Virus record (IMG/VR): IMGVR_UViG_2778261179_000006
Coordinates: 1 to 64,000 of that record
Reading direction: 5' to 3' (one strand)
Source of the DNA: a virus
Taxonomy: Duplodnaviria > Heunggongvirae > Uroviricota > Caudoviricetes
DNA length: 64,000 nt
Of the stretch, positions 32,677 to 41,000 are shown piece by piece. How positions within the stretch are numbered: position 1 is the first letter of the stretch; every line of letters starts with the position of its first letter. A model generated the notes under the pieces. The model saw nothing but the letters and a program-made list of their open reading frames with translations. It was not told the DNA's origin and ran no database searches. Made by a program: the position numbers and the translations under genes.

Positions 32677-33066
32677 TTAAGGTTCAGACCAGTTATCTTC
32701 AATAGCAATGCTTAATCTTTGTAGCCATTCTGCTAATTTCAGCATTGCTTCTCTTTCGCTTAAACCACGCGGGAAATCATCAAGCGCAATTGTTGGCTTG
32801 AAGTTCCCAAAATTATCCATTTCAACGGTCAGATTTTGCTCCAGCACGGTATTCCTTACGCGGCTATTGTGCCGAAGCAAATATACTGAACGTGATTTAT
32901 TGGTTTTGTGGTCGAGCTGATATTCGGTAAGTATCATCTGGCTTTTGCCATGACTATTACCTCTCCACATACCTACCTCACTTAATAAAACAACTCCATG
33001 CGTAGTTGATGATTTTTCCCCACGTAATATAAATCTGCACTCCGGCAGTAAAACCAAAGCCAACAA
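32677..33066 (-). CDS. hypothetical protein
   Basis: 129-aa ORF; start uncertain; an alternative 40-codon hydrophobic ORF starts at 33100 in another frame. Confidence 0.3.
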   Translation of the reverse strand: MLALVLLPECRFILRGEKSSTTHGVVLLSEVGMWRGNSHGKSQMILTEYQLDHKTNKSRSVYLLRHNSRVRNTVLEQNLTVEMDNFGNFKPTIALDDFPRGLSEREAMLKLAEWLQRLSIAIEDNWSEP

Positions 33067-33148
33067 TTGCTGAAAAAATCAAAGCATTTACTTTTGACAT
33101 TATAAATTTTCTCTCGGCGTCGTAGGTGATAGCACCATAATTGATAAT

Positions 33149-33400
33149 TTAGTGAGTTAGCAGTTCCATTTTTTGGATGATTTCCGCATGAGCATCATCG
33201 TTATCAACACTTAAATCGTTTAATGCCTTTCGCACTACATCAACTTCTTCTGGTTGGAAGAAGTCATCTCGGTAGTCACCAAATAGAACCGAAACAAGCC
33301 TGCCACCAGCAACATCAAGATTGGCGCTAACAGGTGGCTCTTTGCCATCCTCAAATTCGACTACAAAAGTTATTTTTCCCATCGTTACCACCAGCGACAA
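33149..33400 (-). CDS. hypothetical protein
   Basis: 83-aa acidic ORF in operon context. Confidence 0.35.
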   Translation of the reverse strand: MSLVVTMGKITFVVEFEDGKEPPVSANLDVAGGRLVSVLFGDYRDDFFQPEEVDVVRKALNDLSVDNDDAHAEIIQKMELLTH

Positions 33401-33464
33401 ATTGAATACAAACCCAGTGCTGCCGCCATCACAATTCCTACCGTTGCGAATGCTTCAGGCCAGC

Positions 33465-34043
33465 TCATTGACCTGCCTCCTGGGAAGGTTCTGGTAGCAG
33501 CATCCAGAACAAGGCGTTCCCTAACCAGGATAAAGTGCCGTCGCTCAACTCCACGTATTCCCCTTGCACCTGTCCTGCCATATACTCACCGTGCTTTGAA
33601 TAAATTAAAATCCAATCATCTTGAGCGGGCATTCGCTCACTACAGCTTATCCAACCATCCGGAGTTACCGGAGAGTTGCCATTCACAAGGTCAGCTCGAA
33701 CATATAGCGTGTCATCATGGTGCTGATTGTGGCTGCACCACGTTAATTCGCTTAACTCGCCATTTTCTGGCCATACTCCAGCCGTTTGCAGCCAGATATG
33801 GGCTGGCGCATCCTGGCAAGGTGTATTAACTGGAAACTTGTAAGTTTGGCTTACAGGTTCTGCACTATCAGCTTCGCGCCGCTTCTGTAGCTCTGCTGCC
33901 ATCGCTCTCACGACTTCAACTGGTGCCCTTGCAGCAAACTCTATGTTGGTGATCAGCTCATTAAGATATTGCTCGCCTGGATACTGTTTCTTATCGGTTA
34001 TAGTGGTCATATCACTCTCCTTTTCCCTGAAGCATAGCGGCAC
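33465..34043 (-). CDS. hypothetical protein
   Basis: 192-aa ORF in operon context. Confidence 0.4.
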   Translation of the reverse strand: MPLCFREKESDMTTITDKKQYPGEQYLNELITNIEFAARAPVEVVRAMAAELQKRREADSAEPVSQTYKFPVNTPCQDAPAHIWLQTAGVWPENGELSELTWCSHNQHHDDTLYVRADLVNGNSPVTPDGWISCSERMPAQDDWILIYSKHGEYMAGQVQGEYVELSDGTLSWLGNALFWMLLPEPSQEAGQ

Positions 34044-34608
34044 GGCAGGCGTTCCAGCCTCTCACCTCTGCAATAGCGGCAACAGCATCGACCGCGTACA
34101 TGCTAAGAGGATTAGGTATTGGTTTTTCTTCCGGTACTACTGGAACGAGGGGAGCGGCGTAGACCTCAATAATTCCATTATCAATAGGCCATTCTCCATC
34201 CTTGAGGTAGTCACTTGTGCCGTCAACTTGCTGTTCTGCAATGTGGAATGCACCTATTGGTTTTGCTTCCAGCGATGCCAGAGCAATTCGTGCCAGTTCT
34301 TCCGCTTCTTCTGCTGGCAGTACAACGTTGCTACCAGGTCCGTATGTTTCGCGCCACTGCTTGATTGTCAGCAGTCGCTCTTTGGTTATAGTGGTCATGG
34401 GTTTTCCATCCGCCATCTCTTCATCGGTTTCCCATAAAACTCGCGCCTGCCCCTCACAGACTTGAATGACTCCGCCACGACCGCAGGAGTTGCACTTAAC
34501 GGCATCGTCATCCCACAAGGCGGTTTCATTTCCGCGAGCTGTTTTGACCGTGTGTGATTTATTCCCGCAGCGGCATTTGTTGAGCCAGTCAATAGTGAAA
34601 GTTTTCAT
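34012..34608 (-). CDS. hypothetical Cys-containing protein
   Basis: 198-aa ORF; N-terminal CRCG...CNSCG zinc-ribbon-like pattern. Confidence 0.4.
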   Translation of the reverse strand: MKTFTIDWLNKCRCGNKSHTVKTARGNETALWDDDAVKCNSCGRGGVIQVCEGQARVLWETDEEMADGKPMTTITKERLLTIKQWRETYGPGSNVVLPAEEAEELARIALASLEAKPIGAFHIAEQQVDGTSDYLKDGEWPIDNGIIEVYAAPLVPVVPEEKPIPNPLSMYAVDAVAAIAEVRGWNACRAAMLQGKGE

Positions 34609-34904
34609 GATGCCTCTCCTTTACCCGCTGCTTTCGCCTGCTCTTTAGCAAGTCGCTCCGCTTCTCTGAAATCCCAATCCACTCGATGTGCTATATCAAT
34701 TGCAGAGCGCACGGTTCGCTCAATTAGCGTATCCAGATTGTCAATTGTCATTGCCATATCTGGATTGCGAGATAAAATCTCCGCCCTCTGAATCTGCCAG
34801 TTGTTGCAGGTTTCAAGTAATGAGTTAGCCATATCACTCTCCTTTAGTGCGCAAGTGGTTTTTCCAGCGGTTTTGCGCCGCGCTGGGCTTTTTGCAAAAA
34901 CCAC
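34605..34904 (-). CDS. hypothetical protein
   Basis: 99-aa ORF, 4-nt overlap with downstream gene. Confidence 0.35.
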   Translation of the reverse strand: MVFAKSPARRKTAGKTTCALKESDMANSLLETCNNWQIQRAEILSRNPDMAMTIDNLDTLIERTVRSAIDIAHRVDWDFREAERLAKEQAKAAGKGEAS

Positions 34905-35367
34905 AATCCATCATCCCGTAATATTTCATCAACCCCATCCGTCGGTTGCTGAGTCTCACCAACTGCCAGACGCCAGGAGCGTTTCTACGAACTAACAGAA
35001 TCTTTGCTTTACGGTTTTTCATCTTACAGCGTACCCTTTCTTCCGCCTGTTCTGTGACGCAGTAGGCTTACGCTTTGCGGCAAAAGCCACCTGACCAAAT
35101 GGATGGAGTACCGCTATCTTATGGTTGCTAATAACCAGCTCCACCACACGCACAGGTCGCTGTAAAAAAAGTCGTTTTGCCTTACGGTTTTTCATCGCTT
35201 TGCTCTCCTGCGTCTCTTTGCTGCTCGTCGTGCCGCTGCAATACCGGTATGGCGGCGCTTTGGTGCCGGGATGATGTTGTCAGCCATCAGGACATGTGGC
35301 TTTGCAATTAGCGCAGAAGCCCAAAAACGAGTCGGGTACGGTAACAAGCCGATACATGCCACACGCA

Positions 35368-36015
35368 CTACTCACCTCCGTTGATGCGAATGCCAGCGGC
35401 ACGGGAATCATTCCATCGCTTTACTTCTTCACGAATTACGTCAATGCATTCTTTCGAATCCATTAGGTAATCTTCATCAAAAAGCCTTTCCTGTTCGTTT
35501 TCTATCGCAACAATGATTGCTTCAACTAACTTTTGTGCCTGAGAACCACTTTCTAACTCTGCAATGCGCTTCTCTGCGGCTTCCAGCTTCTCGCGCATAT
35601 CGTCAACGTACTCGACCAGAGATCCGCCAGCAGGAATTTCGCACTCCTCGACCAGTTGGAAGTAGATATCAGCTGCGGCCCGTGTGTTGCTATGCCTAGC
35701 GTCGCCCATCTCACCTTCACGAAGAGCATCGCGTTCGGCGGTAAGATTGGCTATTTTGCTGTCTTTGCCTTCCAGCTCAACGCGAAGCCTCCCTACCGTT
35801 AGCGCAATTTCCTCGTTCTCCTGGTCACGGCGTTTGATGTATTGCTGGTTTCTTTCCAGTTCATCCAACAATGCCAGCGCGATATCTGGCGAAAAGTGCT
35901 TCATAAAATCGTTAAGCGCATTAATTCGCTGATCGAAAGGCATTACAGGTGCTTCACCAGCAATTTTTGTTTTTTCAGCGATTTCACGAAGCTTTTGATA
36001 ATCAATCTTGCTCAT
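35368..36015 (-). CDS. hypothetical protein, member of a paralogous family (N-terminal INYQxLREAAE motif)
   Basis: 215 aa; N-terminus MSKIDYQKLREIAEK shared with two neighbouring genes. Confidence 0.45.
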   Translation of the reverse strand: MSKIDYQKLREIAEKTKIAGEAPVMPFDQRINALNDFMKHFSPDIALALLDELERNQQYIKRRDQENEEIALTVGRLRVELEGKDSKIANLTAERDALREGEMGDARHSNTRAAADIYFQLVEECEIPAGGSLVEYVDDMREKLEAAEKRIAELESGSQAQKLVEAIIVAIENEQERLFDEDYLMDSKECIDVIREEVKRWNDSRAAGIRINGGE

Positions 36016-36713
36016 TGGATGACTCCTTTACGAAGCTGTTCGGCGATATCTTCGAGAACGCCATCAGAGAATGAACGGTCAAAATCGCCTTCCGGCGCAT
36101 TGGCCATAAACTCAGTAGAGGTAAGAATCATCCGGGCAATATCCGCAGCGTTCTTCGCAGTATCATCAATAAAACCAGCTTTCCAGGCTGCCAACATTCT
36201 GTTCGCCACAAAATAAGCGCCTTCCTTGCGTGCTTCAGTCTTCACTTCAGCTAGAAAAGCATCGGTAGCTGGAGTTTCGCTGTGGTGCAGGGCATCGTTG
36301 ATAATCATTGCAGCAACTCCGGCCTGCCCTGCATCCGTGACCGACACATGCTCAAGAGTTACGGCCATTGCGTGTTTCAGCCCGGCGTTCTCTGCCACCA
36401 GCGCCGCGAGATTAGTCTCAAGCTCTGCAATTCGACACATAGCATCAATATTTGTGTCCTCCAGGCACTTAATTTCACCAAGCAGCTCCAGTGCAACCTT
36501 TGGGTTGAACGCGGCAACATGACGAGCGTTGTTCTCTGCATTTTTCTGTCCATCAAAGCCGGTCCATTTGATAACGTCTTCACATCGTTCATCACCGGGC
36601 GTGTGCACCGCATAAGTACCAGTCTCCGTCGAAATAAATGCGACCCATTCGTCTGGTGTTGCCTTTTCTGCCGCCTCACGCAGTACCTGATAGTCAATTG
36701 TCATTCTCGCCAT
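36012..36713 (-). CDS. hypothetical protein, paralogous family member
   Basis: 233 aa; MTIDYQVLREAAEKATPDEWVAF N-terminus and ETPATDAF...AEQLRKG C-terminus shared with the 37342-38174 locus. Confidence 0.45.
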   Translation of the reverse strand: MARMTIDYQVLREAAEKATPDEWVAFISTETGTYAVHTPGDERCEDVIKWTGFDGQKNAENNARHVAAFNPKVALELLGEIKCLEDTNIDAMCRIAELETNLAALVAENAGLKHAMAVTLEHVSVTDAGQAGVAAMIINDALHHSETPATDAFLAEVKTEARKEGAYFVANRMLAAWKAGFIDDTAKNAADIARMILTSTEFMANAPEGDFDRSFSDGVLEDIAEQLRKGVIQ

Positions 36714-37345
36714 CCTTCACAGTTGTAATCACTACAGCCTTCAAAATCATATGGGCTGTACTGCCAGGTTATTTTTCCGCAATGCGGACAATTCCAACGC
36801 ACCTTCCCGCTTCGCGACTTCTTTCTTCTGTTCTGCTCTTCCAACCAGTCAGGCATGACCAAACCTGCGCCCTGAACCATTGTTCTGCGGTTAAAGTTAT
36901 TGATATTGAACGTCCGACGCATTGCTGCATCAGCAATGGAAAATGGCAACCAAACTATTCCTGGTTCGTTTTTGTTGGCGACGCTAAAGATGGTCGCTTT
37001 ACTGAAGTCATCTGTTGGCAATCCACCGTGTTGAAGCCAGTAAACATCGTTGCCGTTCCAGCTACCTTTTTTGTAGGCCACATACGCAGTGCAATCTGAC
37101 TCAATCAGGCTTTCTGTAGGGATGTACTGGCAATCAACGTGCCACACAGCCATTGCATCCACACTATCGGCACAAACAGGCTGATCGATATCTCGACCAC
37201 AATTCCAGGCTTTTTGGGCTTCTTCCAGCGTGTAAACATGAGCGCGATCGATATTAGAACTGTAACCATTGCCGTTATGGCAATGGAATGAAGCGTTATT
37301 ACCCACAGTTTCACGCAAGCACATCATGTAAAAGCGGTTATTCAC
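36701..37345 (-). CDS. hypothetical Cys-rich protein
   Basis: 214 aa; C-terminal CPHCG...CSDYNCEG. Confidence 0.4.
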   Translation of the reverse strand: MNNRFYMMCLRETVGNNASFHCHNGNGYSSNIDRAHVYTLEEAQKAWNCGRDIDQPVCADSVDAMAVWHVDCQYIPTESLIESDCTAYVAYKKGSWNGNDVYWLQHGGLPTDDFSKATIFSVANKNEPGIVWLPFSIADAAMRRTFNINNFNRRTMVQGAGLVMPDWLEEQNRRKKSRSGKVRWNCPHCGKITWQYSPYDFEGCSDYNCEGWRE

Positions 37346-38115
37346 TGGCTGCCTCCTTTGCGAAGCTGGGCAGCAAAGTCAACTAACCACTCAGTCATTT
37401 CAACCTTCCCTACCAGGTCTGAACCAGGGTGCATACAGCAATCACTCTGCGCCGCTTTGAAATCCTTACACTCATATTCTTGGGCCACCAGATTTTTTGC
37501 AGCTTCTATAGCAGCATCCACCCCCTGCGCCCGGACTTCAGCCATGAAAGCGTCGGTGGCTGGGGTTTCGATATTAGGCAGAAGCGCATAATCGCAAATC
37601 GTATCGATCGCAGGATCACAACAGTCATCCTCGTTGCGTGGTCGTTCGCCAACCTTCGTTGACGATTGCATGATGATTCCCCAGCAAATACTATCGACCT
37701 CTTCGCTCCATCCATCGCAAGCATCACCGCGATAGTCGTCGATTGCAGCCTCAGCCGATTCGATAGCTTCCTCAGCAGTTTTGTGCCATTCGAAATTATG
37801 CTCAGAGCCATATGAGAAATATGAATGTCCCGCCTTCAGCCCCGCATTCTCAGCAGCCAGCGCCGCGCACTTGGCCTCAAGAGCGGCAACCACTTCCTGA
37901 TGGTCTTTGTACTTAACGTATGAGCCGGAGATGTCATCACCTTCGGTGTTTAGCCATGCGTCATTGCAATTCACTGCGTAGGTTCTGATGCTCATGCTGA
38001 TGCTCTCCCGCCCCTGACAGACGCCAGGCCAGTCAATAAAGTATCCGCAATGCCTACCCTCAGACGTGCGCGCAGGATAAATGCCGTTATGACCGGCAAA
38101 ATATATGCTACCCAT
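37342..38115 (-). CDS. paralogous family member, apparently frameshifted relative to its N-terminal segment (37992-38174)
   Basis: C-terminal two-thirds align with the 36012 gene product; the family N-terminal motif MSKINYQELREAAEQATQDEWVAY is encoded in a different frame at 38174-37992. Confidence 0.35.
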   Translation of the reverse strand: MGSIYFAGHNGIYPARTSEGRHCGYFIDWPGVCQGRESISMSIRTYAVNCNDAWLNTEGDDISGSYVKYKDHQEVVAALEAKCAALAAENAGLKAGHSYFSYGSEHNFEWHKTAEEAIESAEAAIDDYRGDACDGWSEEVDSICWGIIMQSSTKVGERPRNEDDCCDPAIDTICDYALLPNIETPATDAFMAEVRAQGVDAAIEAAKNLVAQEYECKDFKAAQSDCCMHPGSDLVGKVEMTEWLVDFAAQLRKGGSQ

Positions 38116-38160
38116 TCATCTTGCGTTGCCTGTTCCGCCGCCTCGCGCAGTTCTTGATAG

Positions 38161-38748
38161 TTAATTTTGCTCACTGGTTGCCCCCTGAATACGCTTAAAC
38201 TCGATTACCCACACCCAAGGATTAGCGTTCCAACTATCTTCGCCATAAATTGATTTCCATAGGCTACGGAAACTTGGGTAATGCTTATCGCCAATGAGGG
38301 TCGATTCTGTTGGTGCGCCCTCAGCCCTTGCATCGCATTCGCTGATATCGTTCAACCGCTCAACGCGCACGTTGGTAATTTCCAGAAGAATGCGCGATGC
38401 CCAGCGCGGCATGTGAATTGATGGCGTCCACTTTTCTGATACTGGTTTATTACAGACCTCGACCGGAACCCGGTGCGTTTGTTCTGTCCAGGAGTTACGC
38501 ACGCTTGCGCGATAAACCAGCGTTGCGACGTCCGTCGCTTTGCCATGTACCCGGTAGGTTTCGCGAACCCAAATACGATCGCCCGGTTGACCATATGGAC
38601 AATGCTTGGCAAGCAACTCTGCGGCCACTGCCCGTCCATAGAATTTTTCTTCAACAATCCTGCGAGTCTGTGTTTTATTCCCGCCAAGAATTGCCCGGAC
38701 CATCTCATCGTTAAAAATCATGCCGCGCTCTTTCACTTCGCCTTTCAT
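38161..38748 (-). CDS. hypothetical protein (ASCH/PUA-like N-terminus)
   Basis: 195 aa; MIFNDEMVRAILGGNKTQTRR...PGDRIWVRET. Confidence 0.4.
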   Translation of the reverse strand: MKGEVKERGMIFNDEMVRAILGGNKTQTRRIVEEKFYGRAVAAELLAKHCPYGQPGDRIWVRETYRVHGKATDVATLVYRASVRNSWTEQTHRVPVEVCNKPVSEKWTPSIHMPRWASRILLEITNVRVERLNDISECDARAEGAPTESTLIGDKHYPSFRSLWKSIYGEDSWNANPWVWVIEFKRIQGATSEQN

Positions 38749-38760
38749 GCATCCCCCTTA

Positions 38761-38847
38761 CCCATGTGCGACGATGCCGCCAAAAGTGATAGAGAACAGC
38801 CAGAAATAGATCGCGGCCATAATGATTTTGAATGCCGTGTTCATATT
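38761..38847 (-). CDS. candidate 28-aa membrane peptide
   Basis: AGGAG SD then ATG; MNTAFKIIMAAIYFWLFSITFGGIVAHG; lies between a C1 operator and the operon. Confidence 0.25.
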
Positions 38848-38921
38848 TTCAGCTCCTGTGATTGGATACATGCCGCGCCTTGCGGCATGTTTTTATTTTC
38901 ACTTTCTCTGTTTTAAAAATC

Positions 38922-38938
38922 AATATTTATTAGAGCAA
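38922..38938 (-). promoter_or_regulatory. C1 operator-like site
   Basis: ATATTTATTAGAGCAAT, one mismatch to consensus. Confidence 0.6.
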
Positions 38939-39445
38939 TTATTGTTGATGGAGAAGCGCGTTTTCATACTCCCTGACCATTAACGTAAGCACGCCGTGCC
39001 TCCTGAATACACGCGCCACTTCAATCTTATCTTCCAGCGCGAACGCAATTTTACTTAGACCAATTTTCTTAAGGAGATCAATCTTTGCTGGACCGTCATT
39101 TCTGTCATCGGTGGCAGGACGCATAGATAGCAAAGGCTCAGCCCCATTTGTTACGTGCTTACGCAACCAGGCTCGTGTTTTATCCCTGGCTATCTCACAG
39201 CGCCCGGTTACAAACCAGAGGGTGTAAATGCCGGACAACTGGCGCACCATATCAATAACTGGAGTGATGGGAGCATCAGTGTCACAGGCAAGGTTAAACT
39301 CGTTCCAGTGCTCTGTTAATGCACCTTTGCCAGGTGGTGGAAGTAAATGCAGCCTGTCTTCCGTTGCCTCTGATATCGTCCCATCAATATCTACTATGAC
39401 GATGTACGGACGTTCCTGGTGTGCGTGTTTATTGAAAATACTCAA
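38939..39445 (-). CDS. HAD-superfamily phosphatase-like protein
   Basis: 168 aa; N-terminal IVIVDIDGT (DxDGT) motif. Confidence 0.5.
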   Translation of the reverse strand: MSIFNKHAHQERPYIVIVDIDGTISEATEDRLHLLPPPGKGALTEHWNEFNLACDTDAPITPVIDMVRQLSGIYTLWFVTGRCEIARDKTRAWLRKHVTNGAEPLLSMRPATDDRNDGPAKIDLLKKIGLSKIAFALEDKIEVARVFRRHGVLTLMVREYENALLHQQ

Positions 39446-39517
39446 ATGCCCTCCTCATTGGACGAAAAAAATGCTGGTGGGAGCACTCCACCAGCATTAA
39501 AAGTGACACTGTAACTA

Positions 39518-40780
39518 TCAGCGAACGTAAATAGTGCCGCCGTTCTCTTTTTCCCATGCATCGCTACGTGCATAGCAAACATCGAGAAGTCTTCTTGCCG
39601 CAGTTTCCTCTAAACCCAATTCGACAACCAACTGCTCATGACGGCGGGTAACCACATCAAACAGGGTATGCAGCCCTTTAGTTGCCAGATCATCAATGAA
39701 TTCCGGTTCGAACGGCAGCTCTGCATCTGCCAACATAACCTCTTGCGCCCACTCGACACGGCGGACCAGTTCCGGGCGGCGGCTTTCCATCTCTTTACAG
39801 ATCAATTCATGGAAGAACTCTACCCAACCTTCCGGCTGGAACTCGCGGAAAATTGCCAACGGCTGGAAGTTTGGCATCAACCATTCGTTGATTCGGATAT
39901 CAATGGCATAGCCCATGTCGCAGCAGAACTGATAAGCAAAGTCCAGCTTAGAAACGATATAAGGACGCTCGTTATTGAACTCTTTAGGCGATGAGATCCC
40001 ATAAGCCAGGAGACGCGGGAAGAAGGAGATTTGCCCTAACGTCGGATGAAGTTTGCTTGCAGGGAAACGGTGCTCAGTAATGCCATACATTTCCTTCTTG
40101 AGCGTCGCAAATTTGGCATTCTCATTAACCAGCGCGGTAACCTCTGCTTTTTTATTAGCAAATGCCACGCGCGCTTCGCTTGCATCTTTAATAGTTTTTT
40201 TGAGCTGTTGGTTAAGGTCGGCGACCTGCTTACGCAGTTCCTGTCGCTCGCTTTTAGCTTTGTTATAGCGTTTCTCAAGGTTAAAAGGATCAAGTTTCAT
40301 GATCTCTTTATATTGAGATTTTAGCGTTGAAATCTGTGAGTTCCGCAGTTCAACCATCGCGGTCATTTCATTGAGTTTTGTTTCCAGCTCAATGCTTATA
40401 CGTTCGGCATTATCAGCACGCTGGTTGGCGTCATGCGTCGCATCGTCGATCGCGTCCTGTTGCTGGCGTTTCAAATGTTCAATTTCCAGCTGAAGCTCTT
40501 CAATTTCTTTACCCTTCAGACCGAGATCCAACTGCATATTTTCAGCTGCATCTACCAGGGAGTTATGGCTATCAGCTTCTGCGTTATAAACATCAATAAG
40601 CTGTGCGTGAAGCATCTCCGCTGACTGAACCGCATTATCAAAAAAACGCGCTGTGAGGTCATCACAACTAACGCGGCGTTGCGCGGCCCGGATGTTCTGG
40701 ATAATGGCCGGGATACCGGCATTCAGGACGTCAGGGATAGATACATTTTCGATTGATTGGTTTTGTGCTGAAGTGCTCAT
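39518..40780 (-). CDS. hypothetical coiled-coil protein
   Basis: 420 aa with an extended heptad-rich central region. Confidence 0.45.
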   Translation of the reverse strand: MSTSAQNQSIENVSIPDVLNAGIPAIIQNIRAAQRRVSCDDLTARFFDNAVQSAEMLHAQLIDVYNAEADSHNSLVDAAENMQLDLGLKGKEIEELQLEIEHLKRQQQDAIDDATHDANQRADNAERISIELETKLNEMTAMVELRNSQISTLKSQYKEIMKLDPFNLEKRYNKAKSERQELRKQVADLNQQLKKTIKDASEARVAFANKKAEVTALVNENAKFATLKKEMYGITEHRFPASKLHPTLGQISFFPRLLAYGISSPKEFNNERPYIVSKLDFAYQFCCDMGYAIDIRINEWLMPNFQPLAIFREFQPEGWVEFFHELICKEMESRRPELVRRVEWAQEVMLADAELPFEPEFIDDLATKGLHTLFDVVTRRHEQLVVELGLEETAARRLLDVCYARSDAWEKENGGTIYVR

Positions 40781-40781
40781 T

Positions 40782-41000
40782 TCAAAGTTCCGTATTAGCT
40801 TGTGCTTCGGTCATTTTTCCTAAGTATGAAGGAGGAAGGACTACGCAATTTGTATCCAGTCCCTCACCTATGGCAGCCTGTAAAATTCTGGCTAAGGTGA
40901 GTCTCTTGTTGCGATACCTGGTGATGACATGCCTGATACCGCCGGTCGGCGTAACAAAGGCGATCAGCCAGTAGTGATATTTCCGTCGGAATGGCCACAT
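40782..41000 (-). CDS. small hypothetical protein
   Basis: 72-aa ORF abutting the downstream gene, preceded by two operator-like sites. Confidence 0.3.
   Translation of the reverse strand: MWPFRRKYHYWLIAFVTPTGGIRHVITRYRNKRLTLARILQAAIGEGLDTNCVVLPPSYLGKMTEAQANTEL

Follow-up and report, generated by a model that had tools for sequence, protein, structure and literature searches.

The stretch of DNA analysed here (the window: 64,000 nucleotides (nt), positions 1 to 64,000 of IMG/VR virus record IMGVR_UViG_2778261179_000006) is, to judge from its sequence, a P1-like (IncY) phage-plasmid, and it carries on its minus strand a group of Ead/Ea22-like genes, one of which survives as a 60-codon open reading frame (ORF), the relic, that ends at the start of a further gene, designated Y. 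About 24 kb around this locus is ~98% identical to ~97-kb E. coli plasmids and to P1, P7, SJ46 and RCS47, and pA17EC0026-3, the plasmid closest to the window overall, is typed IncY. Only 41-47% of positions 35300-38800 can be aligned to P1-type phages such as P7 and SJ46, and other pieces of the same interval match lambdoid and Shiga toxin (Stx) phages; the locus sits in an accessory segment that varies among P1-like elements, which is ordinary phage mosaicism. At the corresponding locus, pA17EC0026-3 (CP088832.1, 42094-44568) carries an unsplit 288-amino-acid (aa) Ead-like gene, a DUF4752 gene and a further Ead-like gene, and so different a module set in an otherwise 98%-identical P1-like plasmid indicates that the segment is reshuffled quickly. 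All genes in this part of the window lie on the minus strand and are linked in a chain through ATGA or GTGA stop/start overlaps.

An earlier interpretation made from the letters of the window (the sequence-only reading), whose coordinates and quoted peptides are all right, had described three neighbouring genes that share an N-terminal motif. In six-frame translation, the whole 64-kb window contains exactly three copies of that motif, [IVL][DN]Y[QK]xLRExAE, at 38165, 36698 and 36006, which open the ORFs starting at 38174, 36704 and 36015. All three are on the minus strand, but they are not contiguous, as a 214-aa gene (37345-36701) separates the second from the third. Membership of the Pfam family Ead_Ea22 (PF13935), for which a whole protein must score no less than the gathering threshold of 27 bits, extends to the genes at 36015-35368 (66.5 bits) and 36713-36012 (85.5 bits), to the 60-aa product (35.7 bits, model positions 1-28 only) and to the conceptual 277-aa protein obtained when one G is restored (63.3 bits). 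The three-part architecture of a short N-terminal segment, a central coiled coil and a variable C-terminal domain is present as the N-terminal motif, ...LAALVAENAGLK... and divergent C-termini.

The relic (37992..38174, minus strand; GTG start at 38174, TGA at 37994-37992) encodes VSKINYQELREAAEQATQDEWVAY..., a product that matches phrog_14804 (E=1e-41, positions 2-60 of 60) and recurs with 100% identity on plasmid pEC21Z048-103K (WP_001354544.1). Its codons 1-27 (38094..38174) hold the true Ead/Ea22 N-terminal motif in the original frame (VSKINYQELREAAEQATQDEWVAYILP), as is evident from the Pfam match and from DNA identity: this DNA and its upstream flank recur without change in loci L055 and L067, where a canonical full-length Ead gene stands at the corresponding P1-type position. 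At 38093..38094, a 1-nt deletion, allele S1, leaves GG where in-frame alleles and canonical Ead genes have GGG (CCGGT in the window, CCGGGT in in-frame alleles), and the rest is identical over ~300 nt except for a separate 6-nt polymorphism; the deletion is apparent against L002, L004 and L016 as well as against canonical Ead genes. The Ead-derived DNA that follows (38030..38093) is read out of frame as VITAFILRARLRVGIADTLLT, and its -1 frame gives GHNGIYPARTSEGRHCGYFIDW, which is homologous to the paralogue at 36012. Since the repaired 277-aa protein aligns with that paralogue across the shift site (37% identity over 116 aa, E=2e-14), the ancestral Ead frame there is the -1 frame, not the one that gives the 60-aa ORF its tail. 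Plasmid pGF60-C (L002) and a chromosomal prophage (L004) retain a single ORF reading ...DEWVAYILPGHNGIYPARTSEGRHCGYFIDWPGVCQGRESI(S/N)(MS)IRTYAVNCND..., and pEC21Z048-103K (L001) and the chromosomes PK8241 (L003) and EJN001 (L007) have the same 60-aa ORF and the same downstream ORF as the window.

DNA alignment thus confirms, through the loss of one G, the claim that a frameshift splits one member of the family, but it shows a 1-nt deletion in place of the insertion of about 100 bp that had been proposed; the 124-nt overlap of the two ORFs arises because that is the distance between the flanking stop codons of the two frames. The body marked by ETPATDAF...AAQLRKGG was correctly assigned to another frame (ORF 38115-37342, minus strand, the -1 frame, ending ...AAQLRKGGSQ) and correctly aligned with the 36012 paralogue, with 63% identity over 19 aa at ETPATDAF in pairwise protein alignment. 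The likeness among the three proteins is uneven: that of the split gene to the 36012 gene extends over the 116 aa given above, and that to the 35368 gene is confined to 15 residues (73% identity, E=5e-4).

Gene Y (37342..37995, minus strand, 217 aa) begins at an ATG at 37995 that overlaps the TGA of the relic and ends at a stop that overlaps the GTG of the next gene (GTGA). A Shine-Dalgarno (SD)-like GGGAGAG (38003..38009, minus strand), with its core GGAG 9 nt before the ATG, is conserved in native junctions between Y and a gene designated X. Both sequence features of a coupled gene pair, a stop/start overlap (ATGA, 37995-37992) and an SD inside the upstream ORF (GGGAGAG, 38009-38003), are found here; the peptide (M)SIRTYAVNCNDAWLNTEGDDISGSYVK is the predicted start of stand-alone Y. 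The protein consists of a MSIRTYAV... N-module, a coiled coil (LEAKCAALAAENAGLK), a middle domain and the ETPATDAF...AAQLRKGGSQ C-terminus. Alone, Y has no hit to PF13935 even at E<=1, although it matches phrog_368 over positions 101-239 (the C-terminal 60%; E=3e-36), a family that the canonical paralogue matches end to end; Y belongs outside the Pfam family and inside the same mosaic super-family (phrog_368). In its homologues, this middle domain and the ETPATDAF...LRKGG C-terminus follow one or another of at least six N-modules, with an ALAAENAGLK coiled coil as the joint, MSIRTYAV being one of those modules and canonical Ead another. A stand-alone 217-aa protein (P0001) that is 99% identical to Y is called on 34 contigs. 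Three close homologues with a different N-module (P0003, P0004 and P0006) are named 'HNH endonuclease' by a source, with no Pfam domain recorded, which is probably a propagated misannotation. An AlphaFold2 (AF2) model of Y, built from a 49-sequence alignment, is poor (mean predicted local distance difference test score (pLDDT) 61.8), with a long helix at 22-54 and a confident helical C-terminus at 150-212, and Foldseek, run with this model against the PDB, found nothing at E<=0.001. Searching PDB sequences with all three proteins likewise gave no significant match, the C-terminal domain of lambda Ea22 included.

The sequence-only reading overlooked that the 'full-length' gene is itself a recombinant fusion. 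In L096, L098 and L106, Y is preceded by gene X, whose TGA overlaps the ATG of Y, and Y starts at the ATGA after X in L096, L098, L106 and L122, with the N-terminus MSIRTYAVNCND... at X-Y loci. X is a winged-helix protein with weak MarR-type Pfam matches, the gathering score being reached by the L098 copy only, and its match to the MarR family regulator phrog_1687 (6e-15) extends to residue 102 of 104. The protein genuinely ends in ...NPLNNLFNQCLASVRGGRASA followed by the stop, the tail taking the form ...NPLNNLFNQCLASVRGGRA(SA/EV/SV), stop, then ATGA. In a three-way alignment, the window equals canonical Ead (L055 and L067, with the same upstream flank) to the left of GCCTGGC, a 7-bp microhomology at the crossover between Ead and the 3' end of X (38023..38029, minus strand), and equals the X-Y junction (L096 and L098) to its right. 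Tail comparison identifies the last ~10 codons of X (37992..38022, minus strand; ...SVRGGRASA and stop) in X's native frame and with X's native stop. These comparisons show the in-frame gene to be a chimera of Ead codons 1-50, the last codons of X read out of frame (VCQGRESIS) and Y from its own ATG. Canonical Ead continues ...WPGIDGQRNAGANARYIAAIPPKVALA, and the chimera is devoid of the second half of the canonical N-domain (...IDGQRNAGANARYIAAIPPKVALA...).

The boundary that the relic inherited is widespread. A tail scan found the X tail in 29 IMG/VR contigs and in Leclercia adecarboxylata NCTC13032, always ending at ATGA; it stands behind varied upstream bodies and before many different downstream genes starting MS..., and the ATGA junction is conserved at X-tail loci despite varied flanks. 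The recurrence of tail and ATGA amid such varied neighbours marks a conserved module boundary, and a search for the ...CLASVRGGRASA tail and stop in X-family genes found it outside Y-containing contexts too. At the nucleotide level, a boundary of ~50 nt (AACCCTCTTAACAACCTATTCAATCAGTGCCTGGCTTCNGTCAGGGGCGGGAGAGCA..ATGA) is conserved in L096, L098, L106, L113-L139 and L. adecarboxylata NCTC13032, between ORFs of great variety upstream (30-160 aa) and numerous unrelated genes downstream, many of which have a LEAKCAALAAEN coiled coil; it looks like a module linker in a group of enterobacterial temperate phages. Because any shift into the -1 frame within ~120 nt restores the frame and stop of X, independent mutations in the Ead fragment converge on the same two-ORF layout.

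Such convergence is visible across loci. Every IMG/VR contig with either of two exact 26-32-nt anchors was gathered, and the 87 classified loci, which include the window and seven hand-picked E. coli loci, are not a random sample. The gene is in frame at 39 loci and split by frameshifts into the same frame at 36, at least four are interrupted or rearranged, and three have a different upstream gene, in the native X-Y arrangement. The split alleles shift at five different sites: S1 (GGG to GG; 10 loci including the window), S2 (+TG at GCATTG; 20 loci), S6 (TTTT to TTT; four loci), S3 (GG to G in AACGGC; one locus) and the doubtful S4 (one locus, L032, with two homopolymer indels and a disrupted Y), the last of which is a probable sequencing error. 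At every shifted site, the in-frame state is that of canonical, non-chimeric Ead genes, so the frameshifts are derived, and at least four independent ones (S1, S2, S3 and S6) broke the Ead relic. The Y ORF is intact (125-232 aa) in 80 of the 81 readable loci, including all carriers of S1, S2, S3 and S6 with enough sequence, so that the further disruption of the downstream part expected of a decaying frameshift pseudogene was not found.

The separate 6-nt polymorphism also bears on the start of Y. The hexamer AGCATG had been considered as an insertion that created the ATGA, an idea that was rejected: it is native to the X-Y junction and contains the ATG of Y, and alleles without it are deletions. 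Among alleles lacking the 6 nt, 17 are in frame and one, doubtful, is split; among alleles that keep the ATG, 22 are in frame and 35 are split (Fisher p=2e-5, at the level of loci, with shared ancestry not corrected). Insertions into the relic were seen as well. L028, which lies outside the 87-locus set for want of the Y anchor, has an insertion-sequence (IS) end of IS10 type right after ...IYPAR. L033 and L040 have foreign sequence, possibly an IS end, after the TG duplication of S2, and L108 and L110 are apparently the opposite junctions of these insertions.

The S1 allele itself is found well beyond the window. A 201-nt stretch carrying it (>=99.5% identity, same length) is present in 20 complete E. 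coli replicons (seven chromosomes and 13 plasmids), APEC O1 has S1 with extra single-nucleotide polymorphisms (SNPs), which brings the complete E. coli replicons with S1 to at least 21, and several IMG/VR contigs carry it on different backbones; altogether, S1 occurs in at least five upstream contexts and before at least six downstream Y bodies. Matches to the 201 nt in E. coli at 98.5% identity were considered as S6 and rejected, APEC O1 having S1 plus SNPs, and S6 is not counted in E. coli.

Taken as a whole, these observations are probably best read as a microhomology-mediated Ead-X-Y fusion that was split again by the loss of 1 nt and from which Y is made alone. The comparisons show that a canonical Ead/Ea22-like gene recombined at GCCTGGC with the 3' end of X, natively followed by Y; the Ead frame reads the X tail as VCQGRESIS, without a stop, and enters the ATG of Y, giving an in-frame Ead(1-50)::Y fusion. 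They also show that, in the lineage of the window, one G of GGG was then lost, which places the Ead fragment in the native frame of X, so that translation ends at the TGA of X overlapping the ATG of Y, leaving a 60-codon relic and an intact 217-aa Y. Y would be translated alone from its own SD and ATG 37995, probably aided by termination-reinitiation at AUGA, and the relic peptide would have no function beyond delivering ribosomes; the Ead fragment would be under relaxed and Y under purifying selection. Translation of Y may depend on translation upstream, for which the rarity of frameshifts where the ATG is deleted is indirect support.

Several points weigh against this history. What is said of coupling, of the use of ATG 37995 and of what becomes of the 60-aa peptide is deduced from the sequence, and the counts of loci are not independent: the 20 loci with S2 are one event spread by descent and recombination, and by events the association with the ATG is 4-5 versus 0-1. 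The split alleles are ~100% identical in the relic, which leaves no variation there for a ratio of nonsynonymous to synonymous substitution rates (dN/dS), and they may be too young for Y to have decayed, though their varied flanks argue otherwise. The GG state of the window is known from the sequence as given, but S1 is a natural allele and need not be an error. A sequencing or assembly error, under which the source would have GGG and a single 277-codon gene, was among the options of the sequence-only reading; a one-base difference in a short homopolymer is a typical error, and the IMG/VR locus L032 has two compensating homopolymer indels that resemble errors. An error of this kind is nevertheless very unlikely here, the GG allele being present in complete replicons from many laboratories, in APEC O1 with SNPs and in contigs on varied backbones, so that error need not be invoked. 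Still harder to credit is programmed -1 ribosomal frameshifting (programmed frameshifting was likewise proposed earlier) or transcriptional slippage, either of which would yield the 60-aa peptide together with full-length Ead::Y. A -1 shift after CCG (38096-38094) would restore the in-frame protein exactly, and the two frames overlap by 124 nt; nonetheless, a scripted scan of 38174-37992 for slippery heptamers detected neither X_XXY_YYZ nor a relaxed form in frame, homopolymers there reach 4 nt at most, an Rfam gathering search of 33000-41000 found no element, 39 alleles are in frame, and the other splits (+TG at GCATTG, T4 to T3, GG to G) lie at different positions, which fits random indels.

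Pseudogenisation, the remaining earlier suggestion, applies to the 5' Ead fragment, but not to the body, which is a gene with its own start. That the whole gene is dead, with the 60-aa ORF and the body both decaying, is improbable: a frameshift against intact homologues is the usual mark of a pseudogene, and in related elements the annotation of nearby accessory genes is often 'frameshifted' or 'partial', yet the body carries an ATG and an SD of its own, in a junction that other phages possess natively, stays intact across the loci despite at least five flanking contexts per allele and is still coupled through its stop (GTGA) to the next gene, and frameshifts are nearly absent where the ATG is missing. 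About as improbable, though compatible with the fusion and re-splitting history, is a functional 60-aa protein that, for example, competes with full-length Ead paralogues for a partner. The ORF keeps the family-defining 27-residue motif and is frequent enough to have its own PHROG (phrog_14804) and RefSeq entries, and the window encodes two full-length paralogues with the same motif; the peptides, however, differ by allele (27 Ead and 33 shifted residues in S1, 43 and 18 in S2), IS elements interrupt the ORF at some loci, and the canonical N-domain extends well past residue 27.

Whether the re-splitting was adaptive is a further question, and we regard a positive answer as rather unlikely. The truncated Ead N-module on Y would then be harmful, for instance through mis-assembly with nearby full-length Ead paralogues; if so, phages and phage-plasmids would have escaped at least four times by frameshifts that restored the native coupled junction, the relic ORF would have been retained as a leader controlling how much Y is translated, and the locus would be a natural case of selection undoing a gene fusion by frameshift, enabled by a fossil gene boundary.

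The remaining genes of the chain show the same modular character. The canonical Ead/Ea22-like paralogue (36012..36704, minus strand, 230 aa) matches phrog_368 over positions 2-239 (E=4.5e-60), and its ATG at 36704 overlaps the preceding stop (ATGA), the mechanical ORF beginning at 36713. The paralogue at 35368..36015 (minus strand, 215 aa) matches phrog_250 (E=3e-52), shares only its first ~15 residues with the other two and has an ATGA overlap with its upstream gene. Between the Ead-type genes lies the unrelated 214-aa gene (36701..37345, minus strand), which matches phrog_2457 (E=4e-118), gave no match in a Pfam search, has a Cys-rich C-terminus (CPHCGKITWQYSPYDFEGCSDYNCEGW) and is coupled to both neighbours. 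The conserved ...QLRKGG(S/N/V)Q ending of Ead-type genes is encoded by CTTCG(C/T)AAAGGAG(G/T)C..., found in the window at 37356-37343 and 36029-36013 (minus strand) and also upstream of 38174, and the QLRKGG codons double as an AAGGAG Shine-Dalgarno for the gene that follows with a GTGA/ATGA overlap; such a protein motif may owe its conservation in part to a role as translation signal and recombination linker.

Further along, 34834-35022 and 35019-35195 (minus strand) are tandem small ORFs that share the start MKNRKAK and 41% identity (E=1e-10). A further mosaic junction is suggested by the ending of the first (...AAQNRWKNHLRTKGE), which is found again at the end of the Y-type gene in locus L097, and related plasmids carry the annotation 'frameshifted hypothetical protein' near 34834-35195. 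Three genes downstream, 33465-34043 (minus strand) encodes a DUF551 (PF04448) protein. DUF551 is reported as the C-terminal domain of one Stx-phage Ea22 variant (PMC10834534), and its presence here as a gene of its own indicates that the Ea22 mosaic is dispersed among distinct genes in the window.

The closest known relatives are lambda Ea22 and the Stx-phage variants V1-V3 (PF13935; InterPro IPR025153, Ead_Ea22), which belong to the same Pfam family as 36015-35368, 36704-36012 and the 5' part of the relic. In Ea22 proteins, a short segment at the N-terminus is shared and a coiled coil forms the centre, and the C-terminal domains are unrelated and mosaic (PMC10834534); lambda Ea22 is tetrameric, early-expressed and favours lysogeny, the pro-lysogenic effect and the tetramer being known from experiments on lambda, Phi24B and P27 (PMC7093339; PMC10834534). 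By family analogy, Y may be an early protein too, an oligomeric coiled coil with an influence on the choice between lysis and lysogeny. Unlike the lambda and Stx-phage genes, those described here are located not between exo and xis but within a P1-like phage-plasmid's accessory region, are present in three copies, and have C-terminal parts without sequence match to any solved structure, the lambda Ea22 C-terminal domain among them. P7 Upf86.8-Upf88.3 and their equivalents in SJ46, RCS47 and JL22 occupy the same genome position and share some of its DNA: P7, whose Upf88.3 is annotated ead/Ea22-like, covers 41% of 35300-38800 with 97.8% identity, and the window overall is ~98% identical to P1/P7-type elements, although the gene content of the segment differs between elements.

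Other precedents concern the layout of the locus. The 60-aa 'ead/Ea22-like family protein' entries WP_001354544.1 and WP_069723431.1 (phrog_14804) are identical to the ORF of the window or one residue off, and the WP_001354544.1-type ORF is likewise followed by an ATGA-coupled 'hypothetical protein'; the databases treat the ORF as an ordinary small protein, whereas here it proves to be a fragment left by a frameshift and closed by the tail of another gene. The dnaX gene and the phage tail chaperone G/GT also have two overlapping frames that give an N-terminal product and a possible fusion, but in the present case there is no slippery site and no conserved shift position, and in-frame alleles are common. 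Comparative genomics of HK97/HK022 and HK620 reportedly attributes lambdoid mosaicism to conserved 'linker' sequences at gene boundaries together with illegitimate recombination. Like such linkers, short junction sequences flank exchangeable modules here (the X tail and ATGA, QLRKGG and GTGA/ATGA, ALAAENAGLK); unlike them, the crossover took place within coding sequence on both sides, and the in-frame fusion that it yielded was then split again repeatedly. A literature search on lambdoid gene-boundary recombination returned nothing specific, and a Pas-sRNA preprint considered as relevant proved unrelated.

The family, its mosaicism and the 60-aa ORF (phrog_14804, RefSeq) were already catalogued. 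The explanation of that ORF and the recurrent re-splitting of the fusion are new, both being modest, and nothing goes beyond the known kinds of phage mosaicism, microhomology crossover, frameshift allele and translational coupling; no new mechanism is shown. For annotation, the 60-aa RefSeq/phrog_14804 entry is a frameshifted fragment and not a protein family, and the downstream gene is best given the ATG of the ATGA junction as its start. More broadly, the locus provides a small, clear example of mosaic gene birth by a microhomology crossover inside coding sequence, in which a conserved stop/start junction lets the fusion come apart without loss of the downstream gene.

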